From the NCBI GenBank assembly GCA_963768765.1, contig CAVYJK010000020.1, positions 257,441 to 321,440 on the forward strand: a stretch of DNA of 64,000 bases, written 5' to 3'. This DNA is from an uncultured delta proteobacterium. Lineage in GTDB: Bacteria; Desulfobacterota; Desulfobaccia; Desulfobaccales; 0-14-0-80-60-11. The position numbers and the translations under genes were made by a program. This document shows, piece by piece, positions 32,415 through 57,431 of this stretch. Position 1 is the first letter of the stretch, and each line of letters opens with the position of its first letter. A model generated the notes under the pieces. It was not told the origin of the DNA and ran no database searches. It saw only the letters and a program-made list of their open reading frames with translations.

Positions 32415-32876
32415 CTATGGCCTCTTCAGCAAATTAGGATGATTTGCCTTCAGCCAATTGATGGCTTCCTCTTTAAAGGCTTTGGCCTCTTCGAGAATTT
32501 CATCGGCTGTGGCATCGGATACTACCCCGGCGCGGTCATAATCAGTTACATTCCGAGTTGATCGGCAAGAGTTAAAGTAATCGGCTCGCTCCTGGGCTTC
32601 CGGTCCCATAACCTCCGGTAAAATCTTGAAGGTTACCCAGTGATGACCTGATTTACCTGTCCGGTAGCCGGAAGCGTAAAGCACTATAGTCGCCAGCTGC
32701 AATGCTGCATTATAAGCTGTGGCGAAACGCCGGTCGGCTGAGATCTCTTTGATAGCCGCATCGGCAAGATCCCGGTCCACTACTTTCAATAAATCCGCAA
32801 CCTCGTTGACAGAGGTGCTATGCCGCTGCAGCCGGCCTTCATTCAGCCAGTTTTGCAAGTTCATCTTCATTGCCAA
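32415..32876 (-). CDS. HEPN-like helical protein (putative toxin partner of the adjacent nucleotidyltransferase)
   Basis: All-helical 153-aa protein overlapping the upstream NTase gene by ~38 nt. It carries CRSTRNVTDY where HEPN proteins carry Rx4-6H, so no canonical His is seen. The assignment rests mostly on context. Confidence 0.5.
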   Translation of the reverse strand: MAMKMNLQNWLNEGRLQRHSTSVNEVADLLKVVDRDLADAAIKEISADRRFATAYNAALQLATIVLYASGYRTGKSGHHWVTFKILPEVMGPEAQERADYFNSCRSTRNVTDYDRAGVVSDATADEILEEAKAFKEEAINWLKANHPNLLKRP

Positions 32877-38798: not shown

Positions 38799-39575
38799 TT
38801 AGGCAGCATTGGCTCCTGTTACTGTCCGCACTTTGCCGATGTAAAGAGGTATGTGCCCAGGGATATAATCGTTGCCGGGAACGCAAACTGGGCCGTGTAG
38901 GCGCTGCCCAAGGGGAGCAGTCAAAGGCGCAAGCAAGCTAAGGAAGTTTTGGAGATCACGCTCGTTTGCGTCGATCTGCCTTGTCCTGGTGTTTGGTGTC
39001 ACGAATTCGTGGACTACGAAGAGGGCGTGCGAAGCGTCGACTTGACCCGCATAAGCGAGGGCAGCTGCGATGCCGTAGAACAACTGGTAGCGAAGCTCGC
39101 CAATTCCGGGCAAGTCGCCGGGCTGGTTGCCTAGAAGAGCTTGGCAAAGCCTTTCCAACCGCTCGGGCCGTCGCGACGGCGGTGGTGTCCTGAGTACATT
39201 GGCGACCAGCTCGCCGAAAGGCTCGTCGGCCTTTGCCTCGATGCTAATAGCGATGCGTTGATTGGCCCGTTCAGCGATGCATACCAAGTCGGTGTTCCGT
39301 GGCTCTCCTGGGATGTTGTCGAATGCGACCTTGTGCTCCGGGATGGCTTCGAGGAATGCGGCGCCGTCGATATCGGGATGGGTGCTTAGCAATTCCTGTA
39401 ACTCAACAGGCACGGCGGGGGCAGAGGCTCTGCCGCACCAGGCCTTAGCAAGCTCCTTAGCACTCTTGCCATCGACCCAGTGCCTGGCACCGCCTGCCGG
39501 AGGGGCAAGGCGAAACCAGTCATCGACCGTCGAGATATCTTTGATGATGCGCACTGAAAAACCTCCCATATCCAA
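38799..39575 (-). CDS. Hypothetical protein with a PD-(D/E)xK-like nuclease motif
   Basis: 258-aa ORF. NTDLVCIAERANQRIAISIEAKADEPFG gives a D...E-A-K arrangement. The N-terminus reads HWVDGKSAKELAKAW. It is the last gene of the minus-strand module. Confidence 0.5.
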   Translation of the reverse strand: MDMGGFSVRIIKDISTVDDWFRLAPPAGGARHWVDGKSAKELAKAWCGRASAPAVPVELQELLSTHPDIDGAAFLEAIPEHKVAFDNIPGEPRNTDLVCIAERANQRIAISIEAKADEPFGELVANVLRTPPPSRRPERLERLCQALLGNQPGDLPGIGELRYQLFYGIAAALAYAGQVDASHALFVVHEFVTPNTRTRQIDANERDLQNFLSLLAPLTAPLGQRLHGPVCVPGNDYIPGHIPLYIGKVRTVTGANAA

Positions 39576-39660: not shown

Positions 39661-42600
39661 TTAATCCTGGCTGCACTGAGCCGTTAGGTCACTGCGGTCT
39701 TTGGATGGCGGTAAATACCTTCGCGTGATGCCGGCGCCCGCTCTCAATAGCGAAGCCTCTTCTTGATCTTCGCTTCGGAATCCTGCCACGCCGGCTTCGC
39801 GCTCGTAGGACGCGGCGATGCCCTCGAGGACTCCCCCGACATAGGGATAGTCGAAGTGCAAGCGCTCGGCCCAGGCGCGGTATTTCGCGGCGAGCTCGCG
39901 CTCCTGTTCGCCCCCTTCGCCCCGCCAGTGAACGCCGCGAGAGTTACGAACGCCGATATGGAATCCCTCGCCGATTTCAGGGGATGCTATCCCTTCCATC
40001 GCCTCGCACACCGCTTCGCAGGGCCATATGCCGTTCTCGCCCTCGGGCGCCTTGGCGAGCAGTTGACCGAGGCAGTGATCACCAATGTCGGCGCGGGCGT
40101 ACTCGCGGCATAGGCGCCGAACCTCGGCAAGCCACGCGGCGAGCGCCGCCGCGTCGATTCTTCCGTTTTCGTCCGTGCCGGGAATCTTCTTTATCTGGTC
40201 GAGAAGGCGATAGGCTGCCGACGCGACTGCCGCCCGCTGCTCGGGATTCTCGATCCTCCATTCCGGCGGATCCTCTCCTTCGTCACTCCGCTTGTAGGCG
40301 AGCGCCACCGCCTGGACGAATAGCGCCGGCGATTGCGCGATCTGGCTTTCGAGATTCGGGATTCCGTGCTTGCTGTCATTCGAGGGCGTCGATGAAGAGG
40401 AATTCGAGCTGGGCCATTTCATCACGGGTGACGCCCGTGCGGCCATCAAGCGAATCCAGTGCCTCGGAAATGTAGTAGCGGTCGAGCTTGAAATGGCCTG
40501 CTGGTTCGGCATTGACCGTGGCGACGTCGCGCAGCAGCCGCTTGAGGCGGGACGTCTCGATGTCCTTGAAATCCATGTGGACGGCGTGGAAAGCCGCGCG
40601 CGGCCGCCGGGCCTCCAGAAGGCGGTCGATCAGTTCGGTAAGCTCGGCGGGCGTGTGCCGGCCCCAGGACGGGAACACGTCCTTCCAGTACCCGGCGCGG
40701 ATGTCCTCGCCATAACCGTCCAGAAGACGCCAAGTGGATGCCTGGAACGGTGCGCATACAAATAGCCGCGTACAGCTCTTCGGCAGGCAGCCCTTCGGCC
40801 GCAGCCTGCAACACCTCGGCGCGCGAGTCTTCCTCGATCGCCCAAAGGAAGCCCTGCAGGCACCACTCGGCCTTGCTCCGGAGGTCTCCGTCAAGGGAAA
40901 GGCAGCGCCGGATGAAATCGACCCGCGGCTTAACGCCGGTAACGCACGACGCCATGTAATGGCCGACGGTGCCGGCGGCGCCGCTGCCGGTAAGCAATTC
41001 CTTAACACCCTCGAAACCGCGCTCGGTCCATATCTCGGTCATCGCTTCGCGGCGCAGCCTGTCGATCCGCTCGTCGCGCTTCTGATAGTCGAAATCCTCC
41101 TCTTCGATCTCGTCAGCCGATTCCTGCACCCACTGATCGGCGAATAGCCAGCCGTGCCGGATGACCGGATCATGGGGCCGGAGGCTGTCATAGGCTTCGC
41201 GGGCACGGTCGCGGGTCGCTTCCCCAAGCTTCCGGTGGCGGCCGCGTCGGGTGAAGGCGAACCGCCGGATGCGCTCGCGCAGCGCGGCCTTGGCGGCCTC
41301 GCCGGCTTTCCGGGACCATTCATTGATCAGGTCCCAGACCTTGGTCTGGTCTTCGTCGGGCATACCCTGGAGAGACTCGACGAGATCGCCAAGGGTCTTT
41401 TCGTCGTGGGATGGCCAAGCGATCAGGAAATCCAGAGCCTTTCGGTTGAAGTCGTACATCTCTTTGTGCGTGACGACCTGCCCGGCCCCGGAGGCGTCGC
41501 TGCGCCAGCGGGGCCTGTAGCTGTAGTGGCCGATCCGGGAACCCGGTTTGATCTGCTCGATGCAAATCTCCCAGCCGACATCCGGGAAACGCTTGATGAG
41601 CATCTCCAGCGCCTTGACCCTCTGCTCCACCGAGGCCGCCGTCTGCGGCATCCATGACCTGAAGATGGCCTGAAGGCTGGCGTCCGGTTTGTTCATCCAG
41701 TTGTCGTCGATCTTCGGCCGGGAGAGCTGGGCGAGGATCGCCGATACGCGCGGGAGGTTTTGCGGTTTCCAGGCAAGGCACTCCAGCGCCCAGAGAAGGC
41801 CCGTCCGCGACGGCGATGCCCCGAACGAGCCGCTGTCGACCGGCTTGAGAAGGCCAAAGACGACGGGGCTCGTTGCGCCGCAGGTCCTCTTCGATGATCT
41901 TCAGGAATTCATCGGGCGCGGCTTCTGCGTAGCGCGGCAGATCGTGGTCGTGGGAGAGCAGCTTTTCAAGCGTCAGCGGCGTTAGGAGTTTGCGGATCAG
42001 AACTGCGACCCGGCTTTCGACATCGATGCCGAGGCGGCTCTGGAACAGGTTGTTGCCGTGGACCGACAGGATGACGAGTGTCTCGCAGATACCCTCGCGC
42101 AACGCGCCGGAGTGATCGCGTTTCTTGCCGTACAAGGCCGCGGCCCACCTGTTCTCTTCCGGCAGTTCGAGCGCCGGGTCGGACTCGGAAAGGACGTATT
42201 CGGCGGCGACGAAGAACCGGTCGAGGTCCGCCGGCGTGACCATCCTCGCAATCGCAAACAAGGCGTCGATCTTCGAGGCGACACCCCGGTAACGTCCGGC
42301 AGACCACACCGGGCTGTCATCGAACCGAAGCAGGCGCGCGACGTCGTCTTCGATCGCCTCGTACTTTCGATCCGCCACATAGGAGACGATCTCGCGATCC
42401 GCCTCCGGCTCGGCATGCCAGGCGCCGATCAGGGCCATCGGCACGAGGGTCTTTGCCGTTTTGTCATCGCCGGCCCATGCCGGCGTCCTGATCGCTGGCA
42501 TTCTGCGAGAGGCGGCGGCGCAGGATCGTCGGCGAACGGCCCGACTCCCTTGCAAGCCGGTCGACGTCGCCTTTCTCGATTCCCATGGCGATGAGCGCCT

Positions 42601-43820
42601 TCTCGAAGGCGTCGTAGCCGAGCAGGTCGAGCGCTATGTCGGCTTCCGTATCGACCGCGTTGCGGGGACGGAAAACGATGCAATGAAGCCGACGATGGGC
42701 GTCGACGAGTTCGCGCTCGGCGTCTTCGGAATGGACAATCGGGATGAAAGGCACGGAGGACGCAAGAAGCGTCCTGAGCGTCGCCGGAGATGTGAAGACC
42801 GCGGCGAGGTCTTTGAATTGGCGGAGTTCTTCGTCATCGAACAGGCAGGCGAGAAAGGCGAGCGCCTCGTCCCGCGAGTCGGCCGCGACGACGAAGGGCC
42901 TGTCGCTCGGTTTGTCGAGCCACGCCTTGAACGTGCTCCGGTATGCGGCGATCGAGGGTGCGAAGATTTCGGGCGTCAGATGGGGCTCGCTGGCGTTCGC
43001 CCAGCGGCGCCATGCCTGCTCCAGCGTTTCATAGCCGCTGACCGGCAGGGCGAGTTGTTCGGCAAGCCAGATCTGCGCCGGCACCGACTGCTCCAGCCAC
43101 TGCTCAAGATCGCTCGCATCGAAAGCCCTGACGGCCTTCCAGTCGCCGGCCTCGTTCTTCCGTTTCTCCCAGGCGGTCTTGCCGGGCCAGTTGCGAGGTG
43201 TCACGAAGACGAAGGTGCTGTTTGCCCGCTCGGCGGCATCAACCGATTTCAGCCGCGCGGTATAATCGTTCTCGGCTTTGGCACCCGGCTTCTGGTCGGT
43301 GCCGAACTCCCAATAGGAGTTTCCCCTCGGGAATCCAGGGTGTGGCGGCGCCCGCTTCGACGAAACCATCGGAGCCCTTGCGCTGCGCGTTGTCGTAGCC
43401 GGGGAAGTCGACTTGGCGGAGGTCGTTGCCGGTCGAGTGCACCAGCTTCCGCAGAAAGACGGGAAGGTGGGTGCGGGCGTCGATTTGGCTGTCGGCCCAG
43501 TCCTCGATCTGCCTTGCCTTGATAGTCAGGAAATTCGGGACGAAGGCGCGAACTACAACCTGCTTTTCACCGGCGCGGCGCTCCTGCTGGTCGTAGGCGG
43601 CCTGCATATCGAGCAGCCGCTTCCGGTCGGCGCCGAACGCCTTCTCCAGCCTGACCGCCATTTCAGGAGACAGGGCGGATTTTCCGTTAAGGAAGTTCGA
43701 CAGGGCCGGCCTGCCGATGCCGAGCCGCTTGGCGGCGTCCTTCACGGACATGCCAACCGGGATGATGCTCTCGCGGACGTAGATGCCGGGATGGGTGGAC
43801 CTTTTGTACGACGTCGTCAT
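39661..43820 (-). CDS. XRE/HigA-type HTH fused to a ~1385-aa protein (REase-like N-domain plus long helical region); 5 apparent frame breaks
   Basis: Five tracked ORFs (43239-43820, 42464-43369, 41320-42555, 40446-41696/40376-41008, 39661-40512) join into one reading. The junctions are WIPEG/NSYWEFG (~43.32 kb), RRRLSQ/PAIRTPAW (~42.50) and RRNEP/VVFGLLKP (GGGG at 41865-41868). The last two are LYAAI/APFQASTW (~40.76) and FIDALE/DSKHGIPNLE (~40.38). The N-terminus MSVKDAAKRLGIGRPALSNFLNGKSALSPEMAVRLEKAFG is a HigA-like HTH. Confidence 0.65.
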
Positions 43821-43872: not shown

Positions 43873-44102
43873 CCAGTCCGTCATGTCAAGGAGCCAAACA
43901 ATAATATTTCGCGAGCAGAAATAAACCCTGACCGGAAGCAGATAACTGCCCTGATCAGAAACTTATCACATCGCCAAAAACCTTCCATAACCAGACCATA
44001 GCTTGCATTTCTCCGGGTAAGGTGACAATTGTCGATCATGGAGATAGTAGCTATCTGTTTTCCAAGCAAGAAATTTTCTGTTGCGACAAAACCTGTGCTA
44101 AC

Positions 44103-45368
44103 ATGGCTTCCAGCGAGCAGGAAGACATGATGGACGCCGTTAACAGTTCGGAGCAATTCGTCTACGAGGTCTGTGAGAATTCTTTCCTTTCGCTGTGGAG
44201 CTACGTCAACCCTCAGGAGCGCAACCCAGGAAAGGAACTCTGCGATATCCTTGTAGTCTGCGATCCTCATGTCATTGTCGTGAGTGTCAAGGATATCGAG
44301 CTGAAGGATTCCGGCAACCTAAAGGTTGAGTGGGACCGTTGGAAACGCAAAGCAGTTAATGCGTCGAAGAAACAGATTGTAGGAGCAATTCGCTGGCTGG
44401 ATGGGGCTCGTGTCGTTGTGGCCAAGGATGGAACACAGGGGTTACCACTACCGCCCACGGAACGGAGGGTCTACCACCGGATAGCGGTTGCCTTTGGCGG
44501 ACGCCGAGAGATCCCCATTTCTAGTTCCGGTACGAAGGATGAGGCGTTTGTACATGTGCTTGACGAGCGAGCCTTCTATCTGCTGCTCCGATATCTCGAC
44601 ACTATCAGCGACTTCGTCCAATACTTGGCCGATAAGGAGGAGTTCTTTAACCGAGTTGCGATCATCATGGAGGGCGGAGAAGAGGACCTGTTAGCTCTTT
44701 ACATGCACAGCGGACGGCAGTTCCCTCAGGGATTAGATATGGTCATTCTTCAAGATGATCTCTGGCAAGGCTTCAATGCCAGGTCCGAGTTCCTTGCTAA
44801 ACTGGACAGGGATCGCGACAGCTATGTTTGGGACCGGCTGATTGAGTCATTCTGCGTCGGGGGGTTTAGAGGAGATACCTGGCAAGGCCCAGGGATGGCC
44901 GAATCGGAGCAGGCCTTGCGGGTTCTCGCGCGTGAGGATCGCTTTTGCAGGCGCGTTCTTGGACGGGCGTTCAGGGAATTCCTTGAACAGAGCAAGGCTC
45001 GCATGACCCGTTCCCGTTGCCTGCAGTCGTTGAGCGGGGTTGTTTATGTGTTCTTGACCTACGATTCGGACAGCAGTCCAGAGGAACGAAAACGTGAGCT
45101 ACTCGTTCGGTGCGTCGCGTCACTGTGTCTCTTTCCTAAGGCATCCACAATCATGGGCATCGACATCAATGTCCCTGGGGAGTTGCCGCGTGGCGGGTAT
45201 ACGAGCGATCTCGTGATGTTGCATTCAGACGAGGGCGAATGGCCTGAGGAGTACGTTGAGAAGGCTCGTTTATTCAGGGATGAACTAGGGTACTTTCGGG
45301 ACCCGAACGAAACCAGATTCCATGAAGACGAGTACCCCGAGAGGAATGGAGAAGACGAATCCCAATAA
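44103..45368 (+). CDS. NERD/PD-(D/E)xK-like N-terminal domain protein with an uncharacterised C-terminal region
   Basis: SEQFVYEVCENSFLSLWSYVNPQERNPGKELCDILVVCDPHVIVVSVKDIELKD resembles the NERD core, but has S-V-K where E-x-K is usual. The likely start is the ATG at 44103. An acidic tail ends the protein. Confidence 0.5.
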   Translation: MASSEQEDMMDAVNSSEQFVYEVCENSFLSLWSYVNPQERNPGKELCDILVVCDPHVIVVSVKDIELKDSGNLKVEWDRWKRKAVNASKKQIVGAIRWLDGARVVVAKDGTQGLPLPPTERRVYHRIAVAFGGRREIPISSSGTKDEAFVHVLDERAFYLLLRYLDTISDFVQYLADKEEFFNRVAIIMEGGEEDLLALYMHSGRQFPQGLDMVILQDDLWQGFNARSEFLAKLDRDRDSYVWDRLIESFCVGGFRGDTWQGPGMAESEQALRVLAREDRFCRRVLGRAFREFLEQSKARMTRSRCLQSLSGVVYVFLTYDSDSSPEERKRELLVRCVASLCLFPKASTIMGIDINVPGELPRGGYTSDLVMLHSDEGEWPEEYVEKARLFRDELGYFRDPNETRFHEDEYPERNGEDESQ

Positions 45369-45637
45369 GGCCGATCTCAGAAACTTATCTCTGAAAACTT
45401 CCCTTACCAGATCATATCTGGCATTTTTCCCCCTCAAGCGATAATTGTCGACTCTGGCAAGGTAATGAAACCCGAAGGCTTATATGTAAGCAGGGTTGCC
45501 TCCTTGACAAACTGGTCTTCATTGTGCCAATGTGAATTATTGAAAGGGTTGAAAGAGCTTAGATGTTAAAAGCTACCGATCTTCGGGAGATTTACAGGCC
45601 GCAAGTTAAGCATAGACTTTTCCAATAAAATAAGGGG

Positions 45638-47920
45638 ATGGGTATGCTGAGGAAGGTCATCTCGATAAGGAAGGTAGGCCGCTTCCTGAGATATTCCGCT
45701 ACCGGAGACGTTGAGTTTAAGCGCTATAACCTAGTGTTTGCCGAGAACGGGCGGGGCAAGACAACCCTCTGCGCAATTCTCCGTTCCCTCCAGGCCGGGG
45801 ACACCGCTCATGTAATTGGCCGCACTACGCTTGGAAGTCCGGGCGCGCCGGAGATTAGGATTCTCCTTGATGACGGACCTGCAGTCCTCAGCGCAGGGGC
45901 ATGGAGCACCACAGTCCCAAACCTTGCTATCTTCGATTCAACATTTGTTTCTGAGAACATTTACTCTGGCGATGTGGTTGACCTCAGCCATAAACGCAGT
46001 CTCTACGGGGTTATCGTGGGAGCGCATGGCGTGGCCCTTGCGCGCCAGATCGAAGGATACGACGCTGCAAGTCGGGAAAAGAGTACCGAGATAAGAGAAA
46101 AACGTGCGGAGGTTCAGGCCCTGGTGCCGCAAGGTTTGGCCGTCGAGGCGTTCCTGCCCCTCCAGGAAGACTGGGCTATAGATGCTAAGATCGCCGAGAA
46201 GGTAAAGGAGCTCAAAGCCGTACAGCAGGCAGAGGAGATTAGGACTCGCCCCGCCCTTTCAGAGCTGAACTTACCAAGATTTTGGATTTCATGCGAAAAA
46301 TTGCTCGGCAAGAGCATCGAAGGCATTGCGAAGGATGCAGAACGCCGCATAAACATCCAGATTGAAGAGCACGCCATGCATGAGCGTGGCGAGCCTTGGT
46401 TGTTCGAAGGCTTGGGCTACATACGTAACAATGAGTGCCCTTTTTGCGGCCAATCTATCAATGGTGTTGCCCTGATTGGTGCTTATAGAGACTATTTCAG
46501 TGAAGCTTACGACGCCTTGCGGGCTGAGATTACGACGATGCACCAGCAAATCGCCGATGCCTTTGGCGATCGGGTGATTGCGTCGATTGATAGAATTATA
46601 GACCAGAATAAAGCGGGCGTCGAATTTTGGTCAAGGTTTTGCACAATCACACCTCCCGTTTTGGACGTCGAAGTGTCGGGGACCTTGTTCAACCTCCGGA
46701 ATGCCGCATTACCTCTCCTCGAACGCAAGGCCGCTACGCCGCTTGAGCACGTGTCTGTAGATGCATCATTCACCGGCGCTCTTGATGCTTTTATGTCGGC
46801 ACGCAGAAGTGCTGAAACTTACAACCAGGCCGTGCGGGCGGCAAATGGCGTTATTGCTCAAAAGAAGGCTGCCACCGGTACCGTTGACATCAGAGTCGTT
46901 CAGAGCGCCCTCACCCTCCTTCAGGCGATAAAGAAGCGACACGAGCCAGAGGGCAAGGAAGCGTGTAAAAAATACATGGACGCGATTACAGAAAAAAAGA
47001 CCATCGAAGACAAGAAGACGAGGGTCAAAGTGAGGTTGGACGAGCACACGCGTGAGGTAATCGGCCACTATGAGAACACCATCAATGATCTACTCGAAGA
47101 CTTCCACGCAGGATTCCGGATTACTGGAACCGATCATGGTTATCCTGGAGGCGTTGCCAGCACTAGCTATCAAATCCTCATCAATGAAACGCCCGTAGAA
47201 TTAGGTGACCCCAACAGTCCCCTCACTATCCCGAGCTTCAAGAACACACTCAGCTCTGGCGACAAGAGCACGCTTGCACTTGCTTTCTTCCTATCTCAAA
47301 TAGAGCACGACCCTGCGAAGGCCAGCAAGATTGTCATTTTCGACGATCCGTTCAGTAGCCAAGATAGCTTTCGAAAGGATTGTACTGTTCAAAAGATCAA
47401 GAAATGTGGTGATGAATGTCACCAGGTCATCGTATTGTCACACGATCAGAGCTTCCTTAAGCGCATATGGGACCGTCTCGCCATACAAGCCGGAGACCGA
47501 AAATGTCTTCAACTAATGCGTGTCGGTTTACGCGACACGAAAATCTGTGAATGGGACATTGAGGAGGCGACGCAGTCTCCTTTCGCTGCAGACCGGAAAT
47601 CGCTGGCCGCCTACTACATTAGGGGCGAAGGTTCTCCCAGAGATATAGTGGTCAAGATCAGGCCAGTTTTAGAGACTTACTGTAGGAACCTCTATCCGGG
47701 CGATTTCGGTGAAGATGCTCTTGGCACTATTATCGGAAAGATTCGGGCCAACGGCCCCGTCCACCAGCTCTTTCCTTTGTTAGAAAAAGTGGAAGCACTT
47801 AACGAGTATGCGCGTCGTTACCACCACGGAGAGAATCCAAACGCCGCCACAGAACCTATTGACGAAACCGAACTTCATGGTTTCGTGAAAAAGACCTTAT
47901 CCATTATTGGATGTTGCTAA
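45638..47920 (+). CDS. AAA_13-type ABC/Rad50-like ATPase with a CxxC hook and an RloC/PrrC-like C-terminal tail
   Basis: Walker A FAENGRGKTT. Helical insert with ECPFCGQ (C267/C270, DNA ~46436-46447). Signature LSSGDKSTLALAFFL, Walker B KIVIFDDPFSSQD, and VIVLSHD. The C-terminal ~150 aa carry KIRPVLETY (R-x3-E), with His at PVHQ and RRYHHGEN. Confidence 0.7.
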   Translation: MGMLRKVISIRKVGRFLRYSATGDVEFKRYNLVFAENGRGKTTLCAILRSLQAGDTAHVIGRTTLGSPGAPEIRILLDDGPAVLSAGAWSTTVPNLAIFDSTFVSENIYSGDVVDLSHKRSLYGVIVGAHGVALARQIEGYDAASREKSTEIREKRAEVQALVPQGLAVEAFLPLQEDWAIDAKIAEKVKELKAVQQAEEIRTRPALSELNLPRFWISCEKLLGKSIEGIAKDAERRINIQIEEHAMHERGEPWLFEGLGYIRNNECPFCGQSINGVALIGAYRDYFSEAYDALRAEITTMHQQIADAFGDRVIASIDRIIDQNKAGVEFWSRFCTITPPVLDVEVSGTLFNLRNAALPLLERKAATPLEHVSVDASFTGALDAFMSARRSAETYNQAVRAANGVIAQKKAATGTVDIRVVQSALTLLQAIKKRHEPEGKEACKKYMDAITEKKTIEDKKTRVKVRLDEHTREVIGHYENTINDLLEDFHAGFRITGTDHGYPGGVASTSYQILINETPVELGDPNSPLTIPSFKNTLSSGDKSTLALAFFLSQIEHDPAKASKIVIFDDPFSSQDSFRKDCTVQKIKKCGDECHQVIVLSHDQSFLKRIWDRLAIQAGDRKCLQLMRVGLRDTKICEWDIEEATQSPFAADRKSLAAYYIRGEGSPRDIVVKIRPVLETYCRNLYPGDFGEDALGTIIGKIRANGPVHQLFPLLEKVEALNEYARRYHHGENPNAATEPIDETELHGFVKKTLSIIGCC

Positions 47921-47945
47921 GGGGCCGAATGACGAAATCGGCCCC
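47921..47945 (+). terminator. GC-rich hairpin directly after the ATPase stop (weak terminator/attenuator candidate)
   Basis: GGGGCCGA (47921-47928), 9-nt loop, TCGGCCCC (47938-47945), then CCTTGGTTT. The U-tract is poor, and the next gene starts 42 nt downstream of the hairpin. Confidence 0.4.
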
Positions 47946-47986
47946 CCTTGGTTTAAGCCAAATTTGTCCAGAAGAAAGGAAGAACA

Positions 47987-48361
47987 ATGAAATTATTTAA
48001 TCCGTCATCAGAACACCCTGCAAGGGCAATACAGGCTTGGCAGATTCTCGTAGGTCTGGCAATGGACCGAAAGACAATCACCTATTTGGCATTGTCTCGC
48101 CTCATGTATCACACGGATGCAGCAGGTGTCCTGCCCCAAATTTTAGGGCACATTGCGTTCTACTGCATAGACAACGAGCTGCCACCACTCACTTCGATTG
48201 TTGTTGGAAAGGGGAGAGGAACACCTGGAGCCGAAATTCCTGTCGATCTCTCGCAGATAGACGCCCAACGAGAGGCAGTTTATGAATTCGATTGGTACAA
48301 TGTTTACCCCCCGTCTGAGAATGAGTTGAAATCAGCATTTGACCGCCATCTTGAAAGGTAA
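47987..48361 (+). CDS. Small (124-aa) hypothetical protein, third gene of the plus-strand module
   Basis: RKTITYLALSRLMYHTDAAGVLPQILGHIAFYCIDNELPPLTSIVVGKGRGTPG recalls the wHTH of MGMT/alkyltransferase-like DNA-binding domains (T-Y-G-x-L-A...L-P...V-V). Tentative. Confidence 0.45.
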   Translation: MKLFNPSSEHPARAIQAWQILVGLAMDRKTITYLALSRLMYHTDAAGVLPQILGHIAFYCIDNELPPLTSIVVGKGRGTPGAEIPVDLSQIDAQREAVYEFDWYNVYPPSENELKSAFDRHLER

Positions 48362-48459: not shown

Positions 48460-48601
48460 GATATGGTTATCATATCTGTATCTCAAACCCTGCCAGGAGT
48501 TTGTTAGCCTTCTACGTGTTCGCCTTCACTTCCAGAGCTGCCACCAGCGCTTCGGCGGCTGTCTCAGAATCTCAAATATCTTATTGGCCGCCCGGGTATT
48601 G
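48460..48601. repeat. Direct repeat copy B (142 bp), overlapping the 3' end of the o-spanin gene
   Basis: 137/142 identical to 38435-38576. It covers the last 24 codons plus stop of ORF 48526-48870 and 66 nt downstream. Confidence 0.9.
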
Positions 48602-48870
48602 GCCGCGCCCAGCTCCGCCGACTCTCGCAAATCCACCTTATAGGTAGCCTCTTTAAAAGCGCTCTCGGTAGGGAAGAAGAGGCCCGCCGGCTGCCCCGTC
48701 TTAGAATCAATGAGCTTCTTCGTATTCAGGGCCGGTTCCGCCGGCATCTTTATATCGGGCAGGGGCTTTAGCGCCTCCTTGGGGATTTGCGGGCAGGGCG
48801 TGGCGCACCCCGCCAGGAGAATTAAAGTCATCAGCAAGACCATCCAGGTCATTTTTCTGCTGTAATTCAT
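48526..48870 (-). CDS. o-spanin (Rz1-like outer-membrane lipoprotein), overlapped architecture
   Basis: Lipobox LILLAGC, a Pro-rich mature region (TPCPQIPKEALKPLPDIKMPAEP), and a start inside the i-spanin gene in another frame. Confidence 0.65.
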   Translation of the reverse strand: MNYSRKMTWMVLLMTLILLAGCATPCPQIPKEALKPLPDIKMPAEPALNTKKLIDSKTGQPAGLFFPTESAFKEATYKVDLRESAELGAANTRAANKIFEILRQPPKRWWQLWK

Positions 48871-49111
48871 TGAGTTTACCCCGCTTCTTAGTGGCCTTGG
48901 CCTTTATTTCTTCCCGTTCCTGGTAGAGGAGAACCTGCTGCTGGGAGATTGCGGCCGCGGTCTGAGCCGTGGCTAATTGGGCCTGGGCCTTCAACTTGGC
49001 CTCATGTTCCCATTTCAGCACCCCCAGGATCGCCAAGACCGCCAGGCCCCCCATGATCCAGCCCCCCAGCCGGGAGGATAAAACAGACCAGATTATTGAC
49101 AGAATGGGCAT
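48707..49111 (-). CDS. i-spanin (Rz-like)
   Basis: N-terminal TM LGGWIMGGLAVLAILGVL, then a coiled-coil (EAKLKAQAQLATAQTAAAISQQQVLLYQEREEIKAKA). Its position is after the endolysin genes. Confidence 0.65.
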   Translation of the reverse strand: MPILSIIWSVLSSRLGGWIMGGLAVLAILGVLKWEHEAKLKAQAQLATAQTAAAISQQQVLLYQEREEIKAKATKKRGKLNELQQKNDLDGLADDFNSPGGVRHALPANPQGGAKAPARYKDAGGTGPEYEEAH

Positions 49112-49115
49112 ATGG

Positions 49116-49424
49116 CTAATTTACCTCCATCTTTGCGGCCTTTTCCGGGGAAGGAGGCACCACCTTCCCCTCAACACTGGCGATGGTTTGGCTGAAGGTA
49201 GTCTTTGAGAACATCGAGGCCCCCAGGCCCCCGGTAGCCGCACCCAGCATCCCCAGGAGCAGGTTCACCGTGGGGCCGTCAAGTCCCTTTTTCAAGATAA
49301 AAACATGAAAGATAATAGAGGCTGAGGCAATGGCCACCACCGGGGCGGCGAGAACTACGGCGAGAACCGCCATGGAATTGACGATCTGATTGCTGCCACT
49401 AACAAATTCCCGCCAGAAGTTCAT
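49116..49424 (-). CDS. Small two-TM membrane protein (holin/antiholin candidate)
   Basis: 102 aa with two hydrophobic helices (MAVLAVVLAAPVVAIASASIIF; LLLGMLGAATGGLGASMF). It lies between the amidase and the spanins, with a 4-nt overlap with the amidase. Confidence 0.5.
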   Translation of the reverse strand: MNFWREFVSGSNQIVNSMAVLAVVLAAPVVAIASASIIFHVFILKKGLDGPTVNLLLGMLGAATGGLGASMFSKTTFSQTIASVEGKVVPPSPEKAAKMEVN

Positions 49425-49951
49425 GCCGCATACCCCTTAACCAGTTGGATAAACCCGACCTTGTCCACATTGTTACCCGGGCAATGATGGGTCGTCCGGG
49501 GGTCTTCCCGGTGCAACCTCATGGTGTCGGGATCGATGCCCAGGACGGCGCTCAGGATGGCTATAGCGGCAACGGCGTTGTCCCGCACCATCGCACCCCG
49601 CCCTAGGTCGAAATCCTCCGTGTCATAGTCGCCCAACATTTCAACGCCCAAGGCTAGGCTATTCCACGATGGCGAGTGGACGCCCGGGACGGTGAGGGGG
49701 GTGAACACCCAGATTTGCAGATCGTCAATGAACAGGTGGGGCCCCCCGGACCAGCCCTGGTCGTCCCGATAGTAGGATTGCAATCCCAGGATATGCTGGT
49801 AGATAAGGCCATTCGGCCTATTAGCCAGGTTGGGCTCCCCGGTGTTGTGCAGGACAATAAAGCCCGGTTGCCAGGCATCCCAAATCAAGCTCTTGACATA
49901 CTCCTTAAAGGTTTCAGGAATGAAGTTCTGTCCTACAATACCTTTCCACAT
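49421..49951 (-). CDS. N-acetylmuramoyl-L-alanine amidase (Amidase_2/PGRP-type endolysin)
   Basis: FIVLHNTGEP...GWSGGPHLFIDD...HHCPGNNVD zinc-amidase motifs. Confidence 0.8.
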   Translation of the reverse strand: MWKGIVGQNFIPETFKEYVKSLIWDAWQPGFIVLHNTGEPNLANRPNGLIYQHILGLQSYYRDDQGWSGGPHLFIDDLQIWVFTPLTVPGVHSPSWNSLALGVEMLGDYDTEDFDLGRGAMVRDNAVAAIAILSAVLGIDPDTMRLHREDPRTTHHCPGNNVDKVGFIQLVKGYAA

Positions 49952-49961
49952 CGAACACCTC

Positions 49962-50504
49962 CTATGCCAAGGCCTGCGCCAGGGTCAGGGCCCGGGCTCG
50001 AACATCGCTCGAATAATCCCTTCCTGTCGTCCGGGCATCCGGGTCCTGCCCGGCGGCCACCGCCTTGGAGACATTGCCGGCGCCACAGTTATAGGCCGCC
50101 ACCGTCCCCCAGAAAAGCCGGGTATAGTCTTCGCCGAAAAAGCCGAAACGGTCTGCCAGGTAATTGTAAGATGGTAGGATCACGTTCTTCCGCACATACT
50201 CCAGCGAGGCGGCCAAGTCCTGCCATTGCCCCGAGTCGCAAAAAGCCCCGTGGCTCCGGTCATCAATTTGTATCTCGCCGTGACCATGCCCGGCATCCCC
50301 CAGGCCGTCCTCATCCAGGAGCAATCCGAAGCGACTCTCCCGGCTGTCAATGGCCATGAGAACCCAAACCATCCACCGAGGCCCCAGTTCGGCCTGGAGG
50401 GCCTGTTCCAACTCCGGGGGCCACTGGTAGGCGTCCGCCGCCGCCTGAAAGATGGGCAGGCGTTCTTTGGCCAGTCCAAATTCGCCTTCTTTAAAGAGGG
50501 ACAT
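49962..50504 (-). CDS. Lytic transglycosylase (SLT-domain muralytic enzyme)
   Basis: MAIDSRESRFG (catalytic E-S) and VAAYNCGAGNV motifs. Confidence 0.8.
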   Translation of the reverse strand: MSLFKEGEFGLAKERLPIFQAAADAYQWPPELEQALQAELGPRWMVWVLMAIDSRESRFGLLLDEDGLGDAGHGHGEIQIDDRSHGAFCDSGQWQDLAASLEYVRKNVILPSYNYLADRFGFFGEDYTRLFWGTVAAYNCGAGNVSKAVAAGQDPDARTTGRDYSSDVRARALTLAQALA

Positions 50505-50926
50505 TAGGACTTTCCTCCACGATGTCCTTGTTGATAATTGGTCTCCACGGTTAGCTTCGCCATGGCAATCTTGATCTCGCCAACGCCTCCTTCAATAACC
50601 TCCAGTTTCTTAAAAAACTTGTCTTTGAACTGGTGAAATTCGCCGTCCAGTTTCGCGATCTTGGCTTTGTTTTCCTCAGACCGCTCGTACTCGGCTTGAT
50701 GAGCCGTGCAATTTTTGGGATCAATAAGGCAAGGAGCAATACCGCTGGGGGCTTCGCCTTTCCCACCTGCTCCGACAATGACGTTGACTTCACCTTTGCC
50801 CAATATTTTCTTTAATAGCGGCCACGCCAAGGCCCCCAGGCCTTTGCCGGCGCCCAAGGCAACAATGACCACAAAAAGCACGCCGATAATGCCCCATAGT
50901 TCCCGGTTAGAGCAGAGTTCCGTCAT
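50504..50926 (-). CDS. Single-TM protein with a coiled-coil tail (holin or lysis-regulator candidate)
   Basis: The likely start is MTELCSNRELWGIIGVLFVVIVALGAG at 50926. The rest is a charged helical C-terminus. It lies immediately upstream of the muralytic genes. Confidence 0.45.
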   Translation of the reverse strand: MTELCSNRELWGIIGVLFVVIVALGAGKGLGALAWPLLKKILGKGEVNVIVGAGGKGEAPSGIAPCLIDPKNCTAHQAEYERSEENKAKIAKLDGEFHQFKDKFFKKLEVIEGGVGEIKIAMAKLTVETNYQQGHRGGKS

Positions 50927-51008
50927 TTCGCCACCTCCACGCCGATAACACCCCCGACCATGGCCTGAAACAGGGGCTCCTGCCAAAATTCCATCATGAC
51001 ATCTCCTG

Positions 51009-52021
51009 TTATTGGACCACCGGAAACTTGCGCCGTCCGGCCTGACTCTGCCAGGCGGTGCGGGCGTCAGGGACCGGGAACTTCCGCCGAAGGTCAAGGG
51101 GCGGGATCTCCTGGTACTCCACCTGGACGATGAACTGCTTCACGTACAGTCCCGGGTCGAACTGCCGGTATTCCACCTGGCCGATAATCTGGGGGACCTT
51201 GATAAGCGGTGGAATCTCTGATATTCCGCCTGGCCGATGACCTGGGAAACCTCGATAAGCGGCGGAGCTTCCCATTCCGCCTGGGCTACTGCCTGGAAAA
51301 CCTTTAGCTTTGCGGGAAGAGGGAAAACACCATTTCTGATCGCATCAATTTCTGTATCCGGAAGGATGTCATTGAAAATCACCATCTCGTCCAATTTGCC
51401 GTCCAGGTAATTGCCTGGATTGGCCAAGGCACCGATGGTAGTGTCTGCTGCTCCCACACGAAGCTGGTTGGAGGGAGTATTGGAGTAATTCGCCACTGTA
51501 CCAGCAGTCGCATCATGGAGCCTGACCTGGCGAACCCTATTTACACCGTCAATAACCACTGCCAGGTGGTACCAGCGTCCAGCCTGGACAGTGCAAGCAT
51601 CCCAGAACTCACCACCGGAGGCGCTGTAGCCCCAGTTGACTCTCAAATACCCGCCAGTAAAGCCGATCTCGATAGTAAGGTCTGTCTGCCAAAGCCACTT
51701 GCTGTAAATATTGGCCCATTGGGAGGCACCCGGTACTGTTTCCAACTTAAACCAACAGCATAAAGTAAATTTTTTAGTTGCATCGCCGGACTTAAGCGGA
51801 TAGCCCGCATCAAGATTACCATCAGCGATAGGAAAATATTGACTGGAGATCAGCTTCAAAATCACGCAGGCCGCTCCTTCTCGGTAATCACCAGTGTCAG
51901 CGGTAGGCGAATTGGCAGAGGCGTGAGGGTATTGACCACCCTTGGAATCTGCGGTTAAAGCACCGCTCTCGAAGCGCCAGAGGGCCTTGCACCGAGGATC
52001 GGTGGAAAAATCGTTGGCCAT
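51009..52021 (-). CDS. LamG/concanavalin-like tail fibre protein with a C-terminal 17-aa tandem-repeat region; frame break inside the repeats (~51.21 kb)
   Basis: CKALWRFESG...LDGKLDEMVIFNDIL is typical of Laminin_G_3 phage proteins. The C-terminus continues from ORF 51140-52021 into ORF 51009-51275 through repeats PPLIEVSQVIGQAEYQ / PPLIKVPQIIGQVEYRQ. Confidence 0.65.
51117..51325. repeat. Coding tandem repeat, about 4 units of 54/53/51/~50 bp
   Basis: Unit starts are at 51117 (ACTCCACCTGG), 51171 (ATTCCACCTGG), 51224 (ATTCCGCCTGG) and 51275 (ATTCCGCCTGG). The 53-bp unit coincides with the reading-frame switch. Confidence 0.8.
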
Positions 52022-52025
52022 GATC

Positions 52026-53014
52026 TTAAGCTACCGCCTTCATCCCGATTTGCACGGCGTTGACCTCGTCCTTGGTCCAGGGCTGGCCGGTGGCCGGATT
52101 GGTTTCCCAGAGCTTGGTCAGGGGCTTGGGATTGACCGCGGGCACCGGCACGTTCTCACCGAAGTAATTGGCGCCGCCGCTGCGGCAGGCCAGTTGCAGA
52201 TTCTGGGGCGTGGGCGAGCCTTCCTTGATGGCCCGGGCCGCCACCTGGACACACTTGACGGAGTGGATGGAGCCAACCAGGTCGGTGACCTCGTAGAGGT
52301 CGGTCTTGCCGGTGACATTGGTGGAGACGTAATCCGTGTCGGAGTATGGGATTTCATTCGACGCAGTCCCAGTTCTGCGCCGGCAGAGGGGTCCCATTCG
52401 GTAAGGGCGCCGGGAGCGGAGGGCCGGATGGCCTGGATGCGGGTGTCCCCCGGCCAGGCGGCGTTATCGATGACCACGTTGTCAAACCAGCAGGAGGCAT
52501 AGTAGGTGCCGTCCCCGCCGATCCGAATACCGTCGATGGCGGTGGCGCCGTCGGTGGTGTCGCCGCTGAAGTTGATGTCCAGGACGCCGCCCACCCGAAC
52601 CTGGAAGACCCCGGCGGTGTCATGGGGCTTGTAATGGACTTCGATGAGGATGGGGGTACCCACGTTGACGGCAATGGTGCCGGTGGCCAGGAGGGTGCCG
52701 GAACCGGTGCCCCGGCGGACCTCCAGGAGGCCGGTGGTGGGGTTGCGCCGGAGGCGGGCCAATTGGGTCGCGCCGTTGAAGAAGTAGCACATGCTGCTGG
52801 CATAGGAGGCGGAGGACCCCCGATAGCGGAACGCCAGGTAGTATTCCGGGGCCGCCGGCACATACTTGTGGGCGTAATAATCCCCGAAGGCGTCACAACT
52901 CAGGCAGTACGTGCCATCCATACCGGCGATACCGCTGACGATCCAGGCCCCTACCACCAGGTCCCAGAGATCGGTCTTGCCCGATTCAAAGCCGTCGATA
53001 AATACCCGGGCCAT
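52026..53014 (-). CDS. Jelly-roll/LamG-like tail protein; two closely spaced frame breaks (~52.36-52.39 kb)
   Basis: The N-terminus MARVFIDGFESGKTDLWD... reads to TEWDPSAGA. It passes briefly through a second frame (QNWDCVE) and then into ORF 52026-52397 (EIPYSDTDYVSTNVTGKTDLYE...PWTKDEVNAVQIG). Confidence 0.6.
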
Positions 53015-53024
53015 ATTTCTCTCC

Positions 53025-54854
53025 TCAGTCGAACATTTCTAAGTTCAGGGTGATCTTGAAAGTCCCCTGGTGGTCAAGGTCGTTGTTGCGGATCTTCAGG
53101 TGCAGTTCGCGGCTGCCATCCCGGTCCTGGACCCAAAAGGGCAGCCAATCCTCAAAGGGAGGGCTGGGCGTCATCCCTTCCGCCTTGTAAAGCAGGGAAT
53201 CGAAGCTGTCCTTACCATGGATTTCCAGGGTATAGGTTCCGGTGACCAAGCCCCCGGTTTCCTCCACCTTGAGATAGTGGACCAGGCCCCGGGTGCAGAA
53301 ACCGGGAAGATTCTGCTGGATTGCGGCTCCCGCGCCCACGGTGATCCCGGACCGGGTAAAGGTCTTGTCCTGGGTGCCGACGCCGGTCACCTTCTGCAGG
53401 TAGCCCAGGAGAAAGACCCGGAGATTGGCGGTCTCCGCACCGCCGGCCGCAACCAGGAACTGCACCGAGAGCTCCTCGTCCGTGGGCAGGATAATTGTCC
53501 CCGGATCGTTCAACCCCGACCAGATGGTGAAAGCCTGGGGCGGAGCGGATATTGAGCCTCTCTTTTTGAACTTTACGTTCACCTCGTTGCCCGGCACCTC
53601 GTCCCAGAAGATCACCCGGAGCACCACCGCCTGGACGCCCTGGGGAGCGTTAATGAACCCAGCTAAATCCAGGTCTTCATAATCGACACTGCTGCCCCGG
53701 TTGAGCTCTTCCAGCACCAAATCGGGGTTCTCTTTGGCCACGTATTTGGTGAGTTCCTGCACCCCCAGGTCCAGGTTGACTTCCCCGAACTCTTTCCAGT
53801 TGGACCCGTCTTCCGTGTACTCCCACCTGTTCGTGGTCTCATTCCAGCGGATGGCGACGTTGGGGGCGGTGCCCCGCTCCACCTCCAACTGGCAGTCCTG
53901 GGAGGGCTCTGCGGTTTCATCCAGGTTCAGGGTGAAGGTGTGACCCGTGGTGCCGAGATCGGTGTTCTGGGTATGGCCTCCACCTCCAACGCCGCCCCCG
54001 GCGCCATATATGGCCCAGGTGCGCTTGTCGGTGATGGTGGTGATGCCGGAAGCGCTCGTAACCACCAGGTAAAGGGGAATGCGGCCCGAGGTGAAGCCGG
54101 TCTGGTTCACCGAGACCGTGCCATTGGCAGGATCAACTTCTAGGTAGTTGCTCTGGCTGGGAGCGCAGGTCACGTGCCCGTTAGGGGTCTCATAGATGGC
54201 GCTGTCGTTTCTGACCTTGCCGGCTTTATAGTAAAAGTTGAGGCCGTCCTGGCGGTCGAAGGCATAATAACCCCCCATCTCGGCCAGGAGTTGCTCGATC
54301 TCCTCCAGCCGGGCCGCCACGGAGGTGAAAGACCTGGATCGGGCGGCGGAGTCCAACATGTCGTGGTAATCATCCCCGTCAAAAAGGATGTTGACCCCGG
54401 CAAACAGGGCCTTGGCCGAGATCCGGTGACTCCCGGCATCCCAGCTGAATTGCCGGGTGGTGGTGCCGTCCACAGAGGTGGAGACCAGGGGGTTGCCGGC
54501 ACCGTCCAGGCTGAGGTAATAGGTACCGGTAGCCTTTCCTGCCATGCTTAGGGTGAAGGTGGTAGTCTTGCGGTAAAACTGTCCGGCGTTCCAGTAAGTC
54601 CCGGGGGAAACGGTGAAGTTATAACCCGGCCCGGAGAGCTGACCCTCGGCAAAATCATAGGAGGCGATGCCGATCAGGCCCCGCCGGTCGAAGATCTCTT
54701 GAAGCCCATAGGGGACCGCCAGGCTGCCGGATTGCCCGGTGAGCTGGCCGAAGATCTGATTCAGGGCGTTTTCCACCGCCGTAGACAGCTCGATCAGGCG
54801 GGCAATATAGTCCTTTTGGCCGTAAACCCAGGCTTTGAAAAGCTCAATAGTCAT
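53025..54854 (-). CDS. Large tail fibre / receptor-binding candidate
   Basis: 609-aa intact ORF from MTIELFKAW (ATG at 54854, 1 nt after the upstream stop). It is beta-rich and G/T/S-rich, and sits between tip proteins and the LamG proteins. Confidence 0.55.
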   Translation of the reverse strand: MTIELFKAWVYGQKDYIARLIELSTAVENALNQIFGQLTGQSGSLAVPYGLQEIFDRRGLIGIASYDFAEGQLSGPGYNFTVSPGTYWNAGQFYRKTTTFTLSMAGKATGTYYLSLDGAGNPLVSTSVDGTTTRQFSWDAGSHRISAKALFAGVNILFDGDDYHDMLDSAARSRSFTSVAARLEEIEQLLAEMGGYYAFDRQDGLNFYYKAGKVRNDSAIYETPNGHVTCAPSQSNYLEVDPANGTVSVNQTGFTSGRIPLYLVVTSASGITTITDKRTWAIYGAGGGVGGGGHTQNTDLGTTGHTFTLNLDETAEPSQDCQLEVERGTAPNVAIRWNETTNRWEYTEDGSNWKEFGEVNLDLGVQELTKYVAKENPDLVLEELNRGSSVDYEDLDLAGFINAPQGVQAVVLRVIFWDEVPGNEVNVKFKKRGSISAPPQAFTIWSGLNDPGTIILPTDEELSVQFLVAAGGAETANLRVFLLGYLQKVTGVGTQDKTFTRSGITVGAGAAIQQNLPGFCTRGLVHYLKVEETGGLVTGTYTLEIHGKDSFDSLLYKAEGMTPSPPFEDWLPFWVQDRDGSRELHLKIRNNDLDHQGTFKITLNLEMFD

Positions 54855-54855
54855 A

Positions 54856-55320
54856 TCAGGACTCCAAGATGGCGATGAAAGTACCGTCCGGGGCAAAGCG
54901 ACCGTGGGCCCCCAGGGGTATGGCGCCGAAGGCCCCGGGGCCCAGGTCTCCCAGTTCCCCCAGGGTCAGGAGGCGCGTCAAACTGCCGCTCCAACTCTCC
55001 CGGGCGATGGAACCCAGATCATCCATGAAGGTCATATAGATGATATGCTCCCGGCCCATGCAGGTCTTGGACAGGCCGCTGATGCACCACTTCCCGTCAT
55101 TCATCCGGGTAAGGAGCACGCTTTTGCCGAGTTCGGCATAGATGATCTCCCGGTTGCTGGAAGCCACCGGCACGCTCCGGAGAGGTTCATCCTGACCGAT
55201 ATCCACGTCGCAGGCCCAGACCCAACTATCTCCGTCCATGTATTGCTGGTAAAACGGGCTGGCGATAGTCCCGATCATCTGGTTCTGGACTTGAGTTATG
55301 CGCCAATCTATTACGCTCAT
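54856..55320 (-). CDS. Phage tail-tip associated protein (hypothetical)
   Basis: 154-aa ORF with a 4-nt overlap with the upstream gene. The call is based on position only. Confidence 0.4.
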   Translation of the reverse strand: MSVIDWRITQVQNQMIGTIASPFYQQYMDGDSWVWACDVDIGQDEPLRSVPVASSNREIIYAELGKSVLLTRMNDGKWCISGLSKTCMGREHIIYMTFMDDLGSIARESWSGSLTRLLTLGELGDLGPGAFGAIPLGAHGRFAPDGTFIAILES

Positions 55321-56879: not shown

Positions 56880-57430
56880 CAGTCCGCCTCCCCCACGATC
56901 CGAAAGACCAACACCACTTCCCCCAGGACGAGGTCTTCCTGGATGGCCCCGGTGTGCAGGGTCACCGCATTGTCGCCGCCGGCCTGCAAACTTTCGATGA
57001 CGATCTGGTAACCTTTGGTGGTTCGATCCTTGGGCCACCAGGTAATGTAGTCCGAGGCAGGACGGTTCACGAAATATTCCCACAAACGCCTAAAGAAGTT
57101 GGCCGGCATACGGCTGGTCTTGTCATCCCCGGCCCAAAACTCCTTAACCGGATTGTCTTTGAGATAGCCGCTCCACTGCGCCAGGGCCGTATCTTTCAAG
57201 GTCATCTCGGCCTTGAGCGCCGGCCGGGCCGTCAAGGGAGCGCTGTCAAAGTTCGTCCATTTATCCGGATTTTCCTCATAGACCAGGGGAGGCAGCAGAT
57301 CATCAGGATAACGCAGCTCCCGGAGGGCATAAGTCCCGGTGTTTTCAGGCAGCAAGATGAGGTCTACCGACTCCTCCAGGATGTCCGGGGTTTCCTGAAT
57401 AGTGAAAGTGGTCTCGGAGGTAAGCTCCAT
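56879..57430 (-). CDS. Phage tail protein (hypothetical)
   Basis: 183-aa intact ORF, tightly packed in the tail module. Confidence 0.4.
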   Translation of the reverse strand: MELTSETTFTIQETPDILEESVDLILLPENTGTYALRELRYPDDLLPPLVYEENPDKWTNFDSAPLTARPALKAEMTLKDTALAQWSGYLKDNPVKEFWAGDDKTSRMPANFFRRLWEYFVNRPASDYITWWPKDRTTKGYQIVIESLQAGGDNAVTLHTGAIQEDLVLGEVVLVFRIVGEAD

Positions 57431-57431
57431 G

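Follow-up and report, generated by a model that had tools for sequence, protein, structure and literature searches.

Three neighbouring plus-strand genes, here called A, B and C, lie between positions 44,022 and 48,361 of a 64,000-nucleotide stretch of DNA (hereafter the window) from an uncultured delta proteobacterium (assembly GCA_963768765.1, contig CAVYJK010000020.1). An earlier note, made from the letters of the window, had described them as a three-gene module composed of a nuclease-like protein, an RloC-like ATPase and a small protein. The three open reading frames (ORFs) are all present at these positions, co-oriented and intact, and every motif quoted in the note was located in genes A and B. 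Nevertheless, the three genes are not a conserved module: the nearest relatives of each are found in wholly different contexts. We consider it likely that they are three independently acquired and independently transcribed single-gene cassettes, inserted in a defence-island-like spot that has a GC-rich block on one side and a prophage's lysis end on the other, and that gene B is a solo member of the RloC family acting by an RloC-like mechanism.

Relatives of gene B were collected by an alignment-based pattern scan with one genome per GTDB species, from which 420 were confirmed and the best 80 loci were used. These loci encode full-length homologues with 40-81% identity and come from Acidobacteriota, Proteobacteria, Nitrospirota, Verrucomicrobiota, Planctomycetota and other phyla. 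A homologue of gene A or C was detected by tblastn within 6 kb of the gene B homologue at none of the 80 loci, and clustering of the flanking ORFs revealed no conserved partner, the commonest neighbour being a serine recombinase (12 loci). The gene C family was followed at 87 loci, 7 of them obtained by exact protein look-up and 80 from metagenomes, and neither gene A nor gene B occurs at any of these. For gene A, we analyzed 7 distinct contexts at 50-86% identity along with 5 viral contigs carrying distant relatives (26-29% identity); genes B and C are absent from all 12. The A-B-C combination is thus found at 0 of the 174 loci with closer (at least 40% identity) homologues. The earlier note had itself named a lack of co-occurrence in other genomes as what would speak against its module, and this is what the counts for the three families give. 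Because the three genes never co-occur in the loci examined, they do not constitute a conserved three-gene system.

The closest relatives follow the same pattern. A gene B homologue with 81% identity is a lone gene between thiG and thiH of a thiamine operon, the gene A homologues with 86% identity adjoin either an MNT/HEPN pair or a phage portal gene, and a gene C homologue with 88% identity overlaps by 14 bp the end of a GmrSD_N-HNH gene, with hsdM and hsdS beside it. The lone gene B homologue was seen on four Lake Tanganyika metagenome contigs (L006 to L009; positions 7113-11623 of L006), where the thiF-thiG-thiH-thiS-thiE operon is otherwise intact. On another contig (L095, positions 3302-4904; also L096 and L105), the gene C relative overlaps the stop codon of a 415-aa protein with GmrSD_N and HNH domains and is followed by hsdM and hsdS.

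Gene B matches the Pfam family AAA_13 with an E-value of 8.4e-34 and a score of 117.7 bits (cut-off 36), and this match ends at residue 620 (residue numbers refer to the 760-aa frame that begins at ATG 45638). The best start is the second ATG, at 45644, which has an AAGGGG ribosome-binding site 7 nt upstream and is the start used in all gene B homologues and in the database gene call P0241 (758 aa). Its homologues number more than 1000, with lengths near 760 aa, and those with 57-71% identity bear the JGI name "wobble nucleotide-excising tRNase", which is the COG name of RloC. An alignment of 28 homologues (57-81% identity) was used to define invariant columns. These include the four residues of the CPFC zinc hook, most of the P-loop, and S539, G541, D542, F568, D569, D570, P571, S601, H602 and D603 of the ATP-binding cassette (ABC) core (Table 1). 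The sequence around the hook (ECPFCGQ...YRDYFSEAY) resembles the hook block published for RloC orthologues, e.g. ...RCPFCQNTL...ERYFDDTF, and the AAA_13 and SMC_N matches suggest that the hook is flanked by coiled coils. Searches of the PDB by sequence, performed with genes A and B and with a profile of the gene C family, returned generic ABC matches or noise only.

RloC was defined as a protein of 658-897 aa, roughly double PrrC's length, with PrrC-like ABC motifs and a Rad50-like coiled-coil insert that carries a CX2C zinc hook (Davidov & Kaufmann 2008, PMC2610378). Its catalytic triad has the form Arg-X3-Glu-X36-52-His, and R692, E696 and H737 of the Geobacillus enzyme are each essential (PMC2610378). 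As an enzyme, RloC is a tRNase that excises the wobble nucleotide, and zinc and DNA modulate this activity. Gene B has the length, the ABC motifs, the hook insert and an R675-x3-E679-x50-H730 triad, the spacing of 50 between Glu and His falling within the published 36-52. It therefore shares with RloC of Geobacillus kaustophilus (COG4694) the size class, the N-terminal ABC motifs, the invariant CxxC hook and the C-terminal triad, as well as a usually solo habit lacking restriction-modification (R-M) linkage, with occasional occurrence in prophages or mobile islands. They differ in the residue preceding the histidine, which is H, A or M in the gene B clade and frequently Ser in RloC. What was observed directly is how gene B is built from domains, which of its motifs are invariant and that it occurs as a solo gene; judged by architecture and motifs, it is a stand-alone RloC-family member. 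In this respect the earlier note, which saw in it an AAA_13/RloC-like zinc-hook ABC ATPase with an R-x3-E...H tail, is borne out, with the residues concerned invariant across the 28 homologues.

The same note regarded the missing R-M partner as remarkable. Among the top 25 families listed for each PADLOC and Pfam scan of the 63 window ORFs, a list that is not exhaustive, no R-M component was found, in agreement with the note's statement that hsd, mod and res genes are absent from the window. However, rloC is reported to be rarely linked to R-M genes (8 of 72; PMC2610378; PMC3458546), so the missing partner is normal rather than unusual. ABC-HEPN proteins of the RloC/PrrC group have also been described in prophage islands as "probably independent of R-M systems" (PMC3710099). 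PrrC of E. coli resembles gene B in its ABC-type NTPase head, its C-terminal Arg-x3-Glu...His triad and its proposed role in defence by translation shut-off. In contrast to gene B, PrrC has 341-416 aa, lacks the coiled-coil/hook insert and always resides within a silencing type I R-M locus (PMC2610378). An identification of gene B as PrrC was rejected, given its 758 aa, its CPFC hook and the absence of hsd genes from the families listed; the PrrC model matched only the ABC signature region, with an E-value of 0.0056.

The nearest named system is PDC-S06, a PADLOC single-gene phage-defence candidate with an AAA ATPase. Thirteen PDC-S06 models match gene B at E <= 1e-5 (best PDLC04895, 6e-59) over the ATPase and hook region, whereas the C-terminal 149 aa lie outside all of them. 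PDC-S06 is recognized by a model match in a single gene; gene B has such a match, and 80 of the 80 homologue loci lack a conserved neighbour. Against the reading of the earlier note, gene B already falls under this named single-gene candidate. PDC-S06 itself is a computational candidate, for which we found no published validation in the literature.

Beyond the ATPase, an AlphaFold2 model of residues 612-760 (pLDDT 78) predicts a beta-hairpin followed by a five-helix bundle, with the R-x3-E pair in helix 2 of the bundle and H730 in the loop after helix 4. A profile search with this tail against 1.8 billion representatives retrieved 1,171 cluster representatives with E <= 0.001. The top 150 consist of proteins with this 760-aa architecture and of fragments thereof, and no PrrC-sized relatives are visible among them. 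The matches of about 400 aa are N-terminally truncated fragments, bar one internal-deletion variant. In the latter (P0365, 395 aa), the ATPase region up to about residue 255 is joined straight to the C-terminal domain, and the hook, signature and Walker B motifs are missing; this protein could be a natural variant with an internal deletion or else a product of misassembly.

By analogy with RloC of Geobacillus (PMC2610378, PMC3458546, PMC3874168), the Rad50-like ABC head, the coiled coil and the CPFC hook would keep the C-terminal alpha-helical RNase inactive. When phage infection gives rise to DNA ends or DNA damage, the DNA-dependent ATPase and the hook would sense them and thereby release the RNase, and the R675/E679/H730 triad would then cut tRNA anticodon loops and shut off translation, leading to abortive infection. 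It is from this analogy that we infer the anticodon-nuclease activity of gene B, its substrate and its trigger.

The arrangement of the locus is consistent with separate genes. The gaps between genes A and B and between genes B and C are 269 bp and 66 bp, respectively. A terminator-like hairpin with a T-run lies in the first gap (fold energy -6.2 kcal/mol, z = -3.3) and is followed by a promoter-like site upstream of gene B; in the region as a whole, 8 promoter-like matches were found where 4.3 were expected. A second, GC-rich hairpin begins one base past the gene B stop codon. The 50-nt stretch that contains it has a fold energy of -20.2 kcal/mol (z = -3.15), and 0 of 200 shuffled sequences fold as well. 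Since this hairpin lacks a canonical U-tract, its function as a terminator is putative. These pattern-level signals all point the same way, to three separate transcription units.

The three genes have GC contents of 0.537 (A), 0.516 (B) and 0.477 (C), compared with 0.625 in the upstream block and 0.584 in the downstream phage genes. They are thus AT-richer than the adjacent GC-rich module, as the earlier note had remarked, and lower in GC than both flanks. The upstream flank is a minus-strand block that begins with an XRE-type helix-turn-helix (HTH), whereas prophage lysis and tail genes (Amidase_2, SLT, Laminin_G_3 fibre) occupy the minus strand from 48.5 kb on. Genes A to C therefore sit at the edge of a prophage, just outside its lysis end, which is a typical spot for cargo or defence genes.

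Table 1 Positions of the genes, motifs, putative transcription signals and overlapping ORFs in the window.
Feature	Position	Strand	Remarks
Gene A	44103..45368	+	421 aa from ATG 44103; alternative starts GTG 44022 (448 aa) and ATG 44130
Gene B	45644..47920	+	758 aa; 760 aa from ATG 45638
Gene C	47987..48361	+	124 aa
Gene B, Walker A / P-loop G38-R-G-K-T-T43 (in ENGRGKTT)	45749..45766	+	R39, G40, K41 and T43 invariant
Gene B, zinc hook C267-P-F-C270	46436..46447	+	All four residues invariant; within an insert of ~490 aa between Walker A and ABC signature
Gene B, ABC signature LSSGDKS (538-544), Walker B/D-loop IVIFDDP (565-571), switch His S601-H602-D603 (VLSHD, 599)	47249..47446	+	
Gene B, C-terminal all-alpha domain, ~residues 647-760	47576..47917	+	Putative anticodon nuclease (HEPN-like)
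Gene B, R675-x3-E679 (in IRPVLE)	47660-47674	+	R675, P676 and E679 invariant
Gene B, H730	47825-47827	+	H730 and G731 invariant
Terminator-like hairpin with T-run	45407..45431	+	Consensus scan; 39 bp past gene A stop; pattern match only
Sigma-70-like promoter match TTTACA-16-TAGACT	45591..45618	+	Upstream of gene B; 9/12 positions; consensus match only
GC-rich hairpin, 8-bp stem, GGGGCCGA - 9 nt - TCGGCCCC	47921..47945	+	Begins one base past gene B stop
Overlapping ORFs	43239-43820, 42464-43369, 41320-42555, 40446-41696, 39661-40512	-	Frame changes

At least 826 clusters of proteins about 407 aa long make up the family of gene A, and some of its members are named "NERD domain-containing" by NCBI. 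The ORF read by the earlier note from 44103 stands, but with a length of 421 rather than 422 aa, and the majority of homologues begin at a Met aligned with position 44130. The protein begins with a divergent NERD/PD-(D/E)xK-like N-terminal domain (residues ~15-131); a middle domain of helices comes next, and the C-terminal domain is alpha/beta. The protein carries GKELCDILVVCDPHVIVVSVKD; within the family E17, E45, D48, S61 and V62 are invariant, K63 is found in at least 90% of the sequences, and an arginine-rich helix (R273, E278, R280, R283, R284) is also present. Nearly all family members were seen to end in a conserved ...H-E-D-E-Y-P (EDEYP) motif, and 3 of 39 members have an additional C-terminal SEC-C metal-binding motif (3.9e-10).

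No match to Pfam, PADLOC or NCBIfam was obtained with the window protein, including none to Pfam NERD at E <= 1. Across the family, 26 of 39 members match Pfam NERD, all below threshold (best 3.3e-4), and gene A matches phrog_18195, whose function is unannotated, at 1e-26. An AlphaFold2 model (pLDDT 84.9, pTM 0.85) gave no Foldseek match at E <= 0.001, the best values being 0.079 in the PDB and 0.0044 in BFVD. Almost all of the weak matches are PD-(D/E)xK nucleases: R.BspD6I small subunit, lambda exonuclease, RecE, McrC, Can2 and Bax1 in the PDB, and RecB-family, Cas4-like and YqaJ proteins in BFVD, with probabilities up to 0.98 over about 90 residues. The NERD/PD-(D/E)xK-like core proposed in the earlier note thus finds weak support in these sub-threshold matches, and the label "NERD-like" is reasonable for the first ~115 residues, which share with NERD (PF08378) and PD-(D/E)xK proteins the E...D...x-K pattern and a PD-(D/E)xK-like predicted fold. 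Gene A differs from them in that Ser invariably takes the place of the second acidic residue (S61-V-K63), and from NERD in having about 290 further residues that form two more domains lacking any match. Enzymes of the Cfr10I/NgoMIV type have S-x-K with a Glu recruited from elsewhere. Gene A is probably an independent solo protein that binds or cuts nucleic acid, often located in defence islands or by prophages.

The family of gene C comprises at least 470 clusters, its members being about 122 aa long with 60-88% identity and 31 invariant columns. Gene C has no sequence match in Pfam, PADLOC, NCBIfam, PHROG or the PDB, and a Pfam scan at the family level was likewise negative. Clustering of neighbouring ORFs yielded no conserved partner: the 116 ORFs that directly adjoin gene C homologues fall into 89 clusters, with repeats only among near-identical contigs, and a further 150 neighbour ORFs match 142 Pfam families, with a slight excess of R-M, helicase, integrase, reverse transcriptase and toxin families. 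R-M, abortive infection (Abi), reverse transcriptase or toxin genes often lie close to the gene C homologues, whose neighbours are variable. As a small solo gene in its own right, gene C is highly conserved and occurs in variable regions that are often mobile or rich in defence genes.

Several observations weigh against the reading of the trio as independent cassettes with an RloC-like gene B. The GC content that A, B and C share below both flanks may mean that they arrived together, genes B and C are on the same strand with only the short gap between them, and in this one genome they may interact functionally even though they do not co-occur at the other loci. As for the tail of gene B, its last 149 aa (residues 612-760), scanned for 20 family members, have no match among the Pfam and PADLOC models, PrrC and PDC-S06 included, and do not align to the proven anticodon-nuclease domains of RloC or PrrC with the profiles used. 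Foldseek found no significant PDB match for the tail model; the best by TM-score is the HEPN-containing Csm6 (6tug_D, TMq 0.49, E = 1.7, not significant). In addition, the arginine nearest H730 lies only 2-3 residues upstream (R726/R727), which is not the canonical HEPN Rx4-6H spacing. Given that neither profiles nor structures gave a significant match, homology of the tail to a proven anticodon-nuclease domain rests on the short motif and the all-alpha fold. What the earlier note likened to the PrrC/RloC Arg-Glu-His triad is confirmed as an invariant triad, whereas the structural comparison of the tail yielded nothing significant.

These features of the tail would also suit a C-terminal domain that is not a PrrC/RloC-type nuclease at all, in which case it could be another effector, a regulatory domain or an oligomerisation domain and the R-x3-E...H pattern a coincidence. 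We regard this as rather unlikely, because R675, E679 and H730 are invariant at 57-81% identity while adjacent positions vary and the Glu-to-His spacing agrees with that published for RloC (PMC2610378). Moreover, the tail is all-alpha like HEPN, with Csm6 as its best TM-score match, and the HEPN domains of PrrC and RloC have been called atypical and hard to detect (PMC3710099).

There is also a slim chance that something new is involved for both genes: the gene B clade, with about 1,170 cluster representatives sharing the tail, would be hook ATPases whose helical tail is a previously undescribed effector and not a PrrC/RloC-type anticodon nuclease, and the gene C family (470+ clusters, always solo, often by restriction or Abi genes) would represent a novel kind of mobile element. 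Consisting of a single gene, the latter would serve in defence, anti-defence or regulation and dock by varied defence genes, gene B among them.

A related proposal holds that genes B and C form a two-gene operon, with C as a small modular accessory (a regulator, sensor or antitoxin-like protein) docking on different defence genes. The 66-bp spacing on one strand would fit, as would the vicinity of many gene C homologues to R-M, Abi, reverse transcriptase and toxin genes and the 14-bp overlap of the 88%-identical homologue with the GmrSD_N-HNH gene, where gene C is apparently translationally coupled behind a quite different defence gene. We nevertheless consider this operon highly improbable, as C is present at 0 of 80 gene B loci and B at 0 of 87 gene C loci, most gene C homologues are separated from unrelated neighbours by gaps of 100-300 bp on both sides, and a stable hairpin directly follows the gene B stop codon.

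The earlier note had further suggested that the layout echoes Lamassu (LmuA and LmuB, with or without LmuC), in which an SMC/Rad50-like ATPase is likewise accompanied by a nuclease-like and a small protein. The only link is a partial match of gene B to the LmuB hidden Markov model (3e-16), which spans generic SMC/ABC regions with shared motifs and is far weaker than the PDC-S06 match. Gene B differs, too, in carrying its own putative C-terminal effector domain. Lamassu was rejected, with no LmuA or LmuC match for genes A or C and with both neighbours absent from the 80 gene B loci. A genuine three-component system of recent or lineage-specific origin, combining a nuclease-like effector, an SMC/Rad50-like ATPase and a small subunit in a Lamassu-like manner, would account for the co-oriented, intact, lower-GC genes and the partial LmuB match, but is barely credible in view of the co-occurrence at 0 of 174 closer loci, closest relatives included, and 0 of 5 distant viral gene A loci, the 269-bp A-B gap with its terminator-like and promoter-like sites, the lack of any PADLOC match (LmuA included) for A and C, and the generic nature of the LmuB match.

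Other features of the window were recorded along with the trio. The upstream block (39661-43820, minus strand, 62.5% GC) contains five long ORFs that overlap end to end in different frames. These look like the pieces of a single ~1,400-aa gene, with an XRE HTH at its N-terminus, that frameshifts have interrupted; the frameshifts could stem from real decay or from assembly indel errors. The first piece matches phrog_18693 (a 1258-aa profile) and HTH_3. Just past this broken gene, a DUF6946 protein (Pfam 1.4e-36) is encoded at 38799-39575 on the minus strand; DUF6946 is a "dark" family recently defined from AlphaFold clusters. On the other side of the trio, positions 48526-64000 (minus strand) hold an unbroken run of phage late genes; besides large structural ORFs, these encode small membrane proteins resembling holins or spanins, Amidase_2 and an SLT-like lysozyme, and a tail-fibre protein with Laminin_G_3.

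The scan of the window ORFs also returned strong PADLOC matches to PDC-M05A (2.5e-63) and PDC-M05B (5.1e-59), PDC-M05 being a nucleotidyltransferase and HEPN pair, probably in the region of 32415-33480 (minus strand) and 31636-32070 (plus strand). By inspection of the sequence, the pair is most likely composed of 32839-33480 (…FGSLAQGRETAQSDIDL…) and 32415-32873. Next to this candidate pair lies a truncated piece of a tyrosine integrase (…HDLRHT…). A window ORF that is not gene B matches the PADLOC model mad2 of the MADS system (3.1e-16). Positions 1-31000 are occupied by a large polysaccharide-biosynthesis cluster with several glycosyltransferases of families 1 and 2, three radical-SAM/B12-binding proteins, Wzy_C, Poly_export, GNVR, Polysacc_synt_2, epimerases and a NusG-like gene.

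In summary, gene B, which had looked like a PrrC/RloC orphan accompanied by two partners, is an ordinary solo gene of the RloC type, and its two neighbours are unrelated cargo. A false lead is thereby removed: that genes adjoin each other in a single window does not show that they form a system. Gene B belongs to an environmental RloC-like clade whose tail is not covered by current Pfam and PADLOC models, and genes A and C represent two widespread unannotated solo families, of about 407 aa (NERD-like) and about 122 aa, respectively, that are possible single-gene defence candidates.

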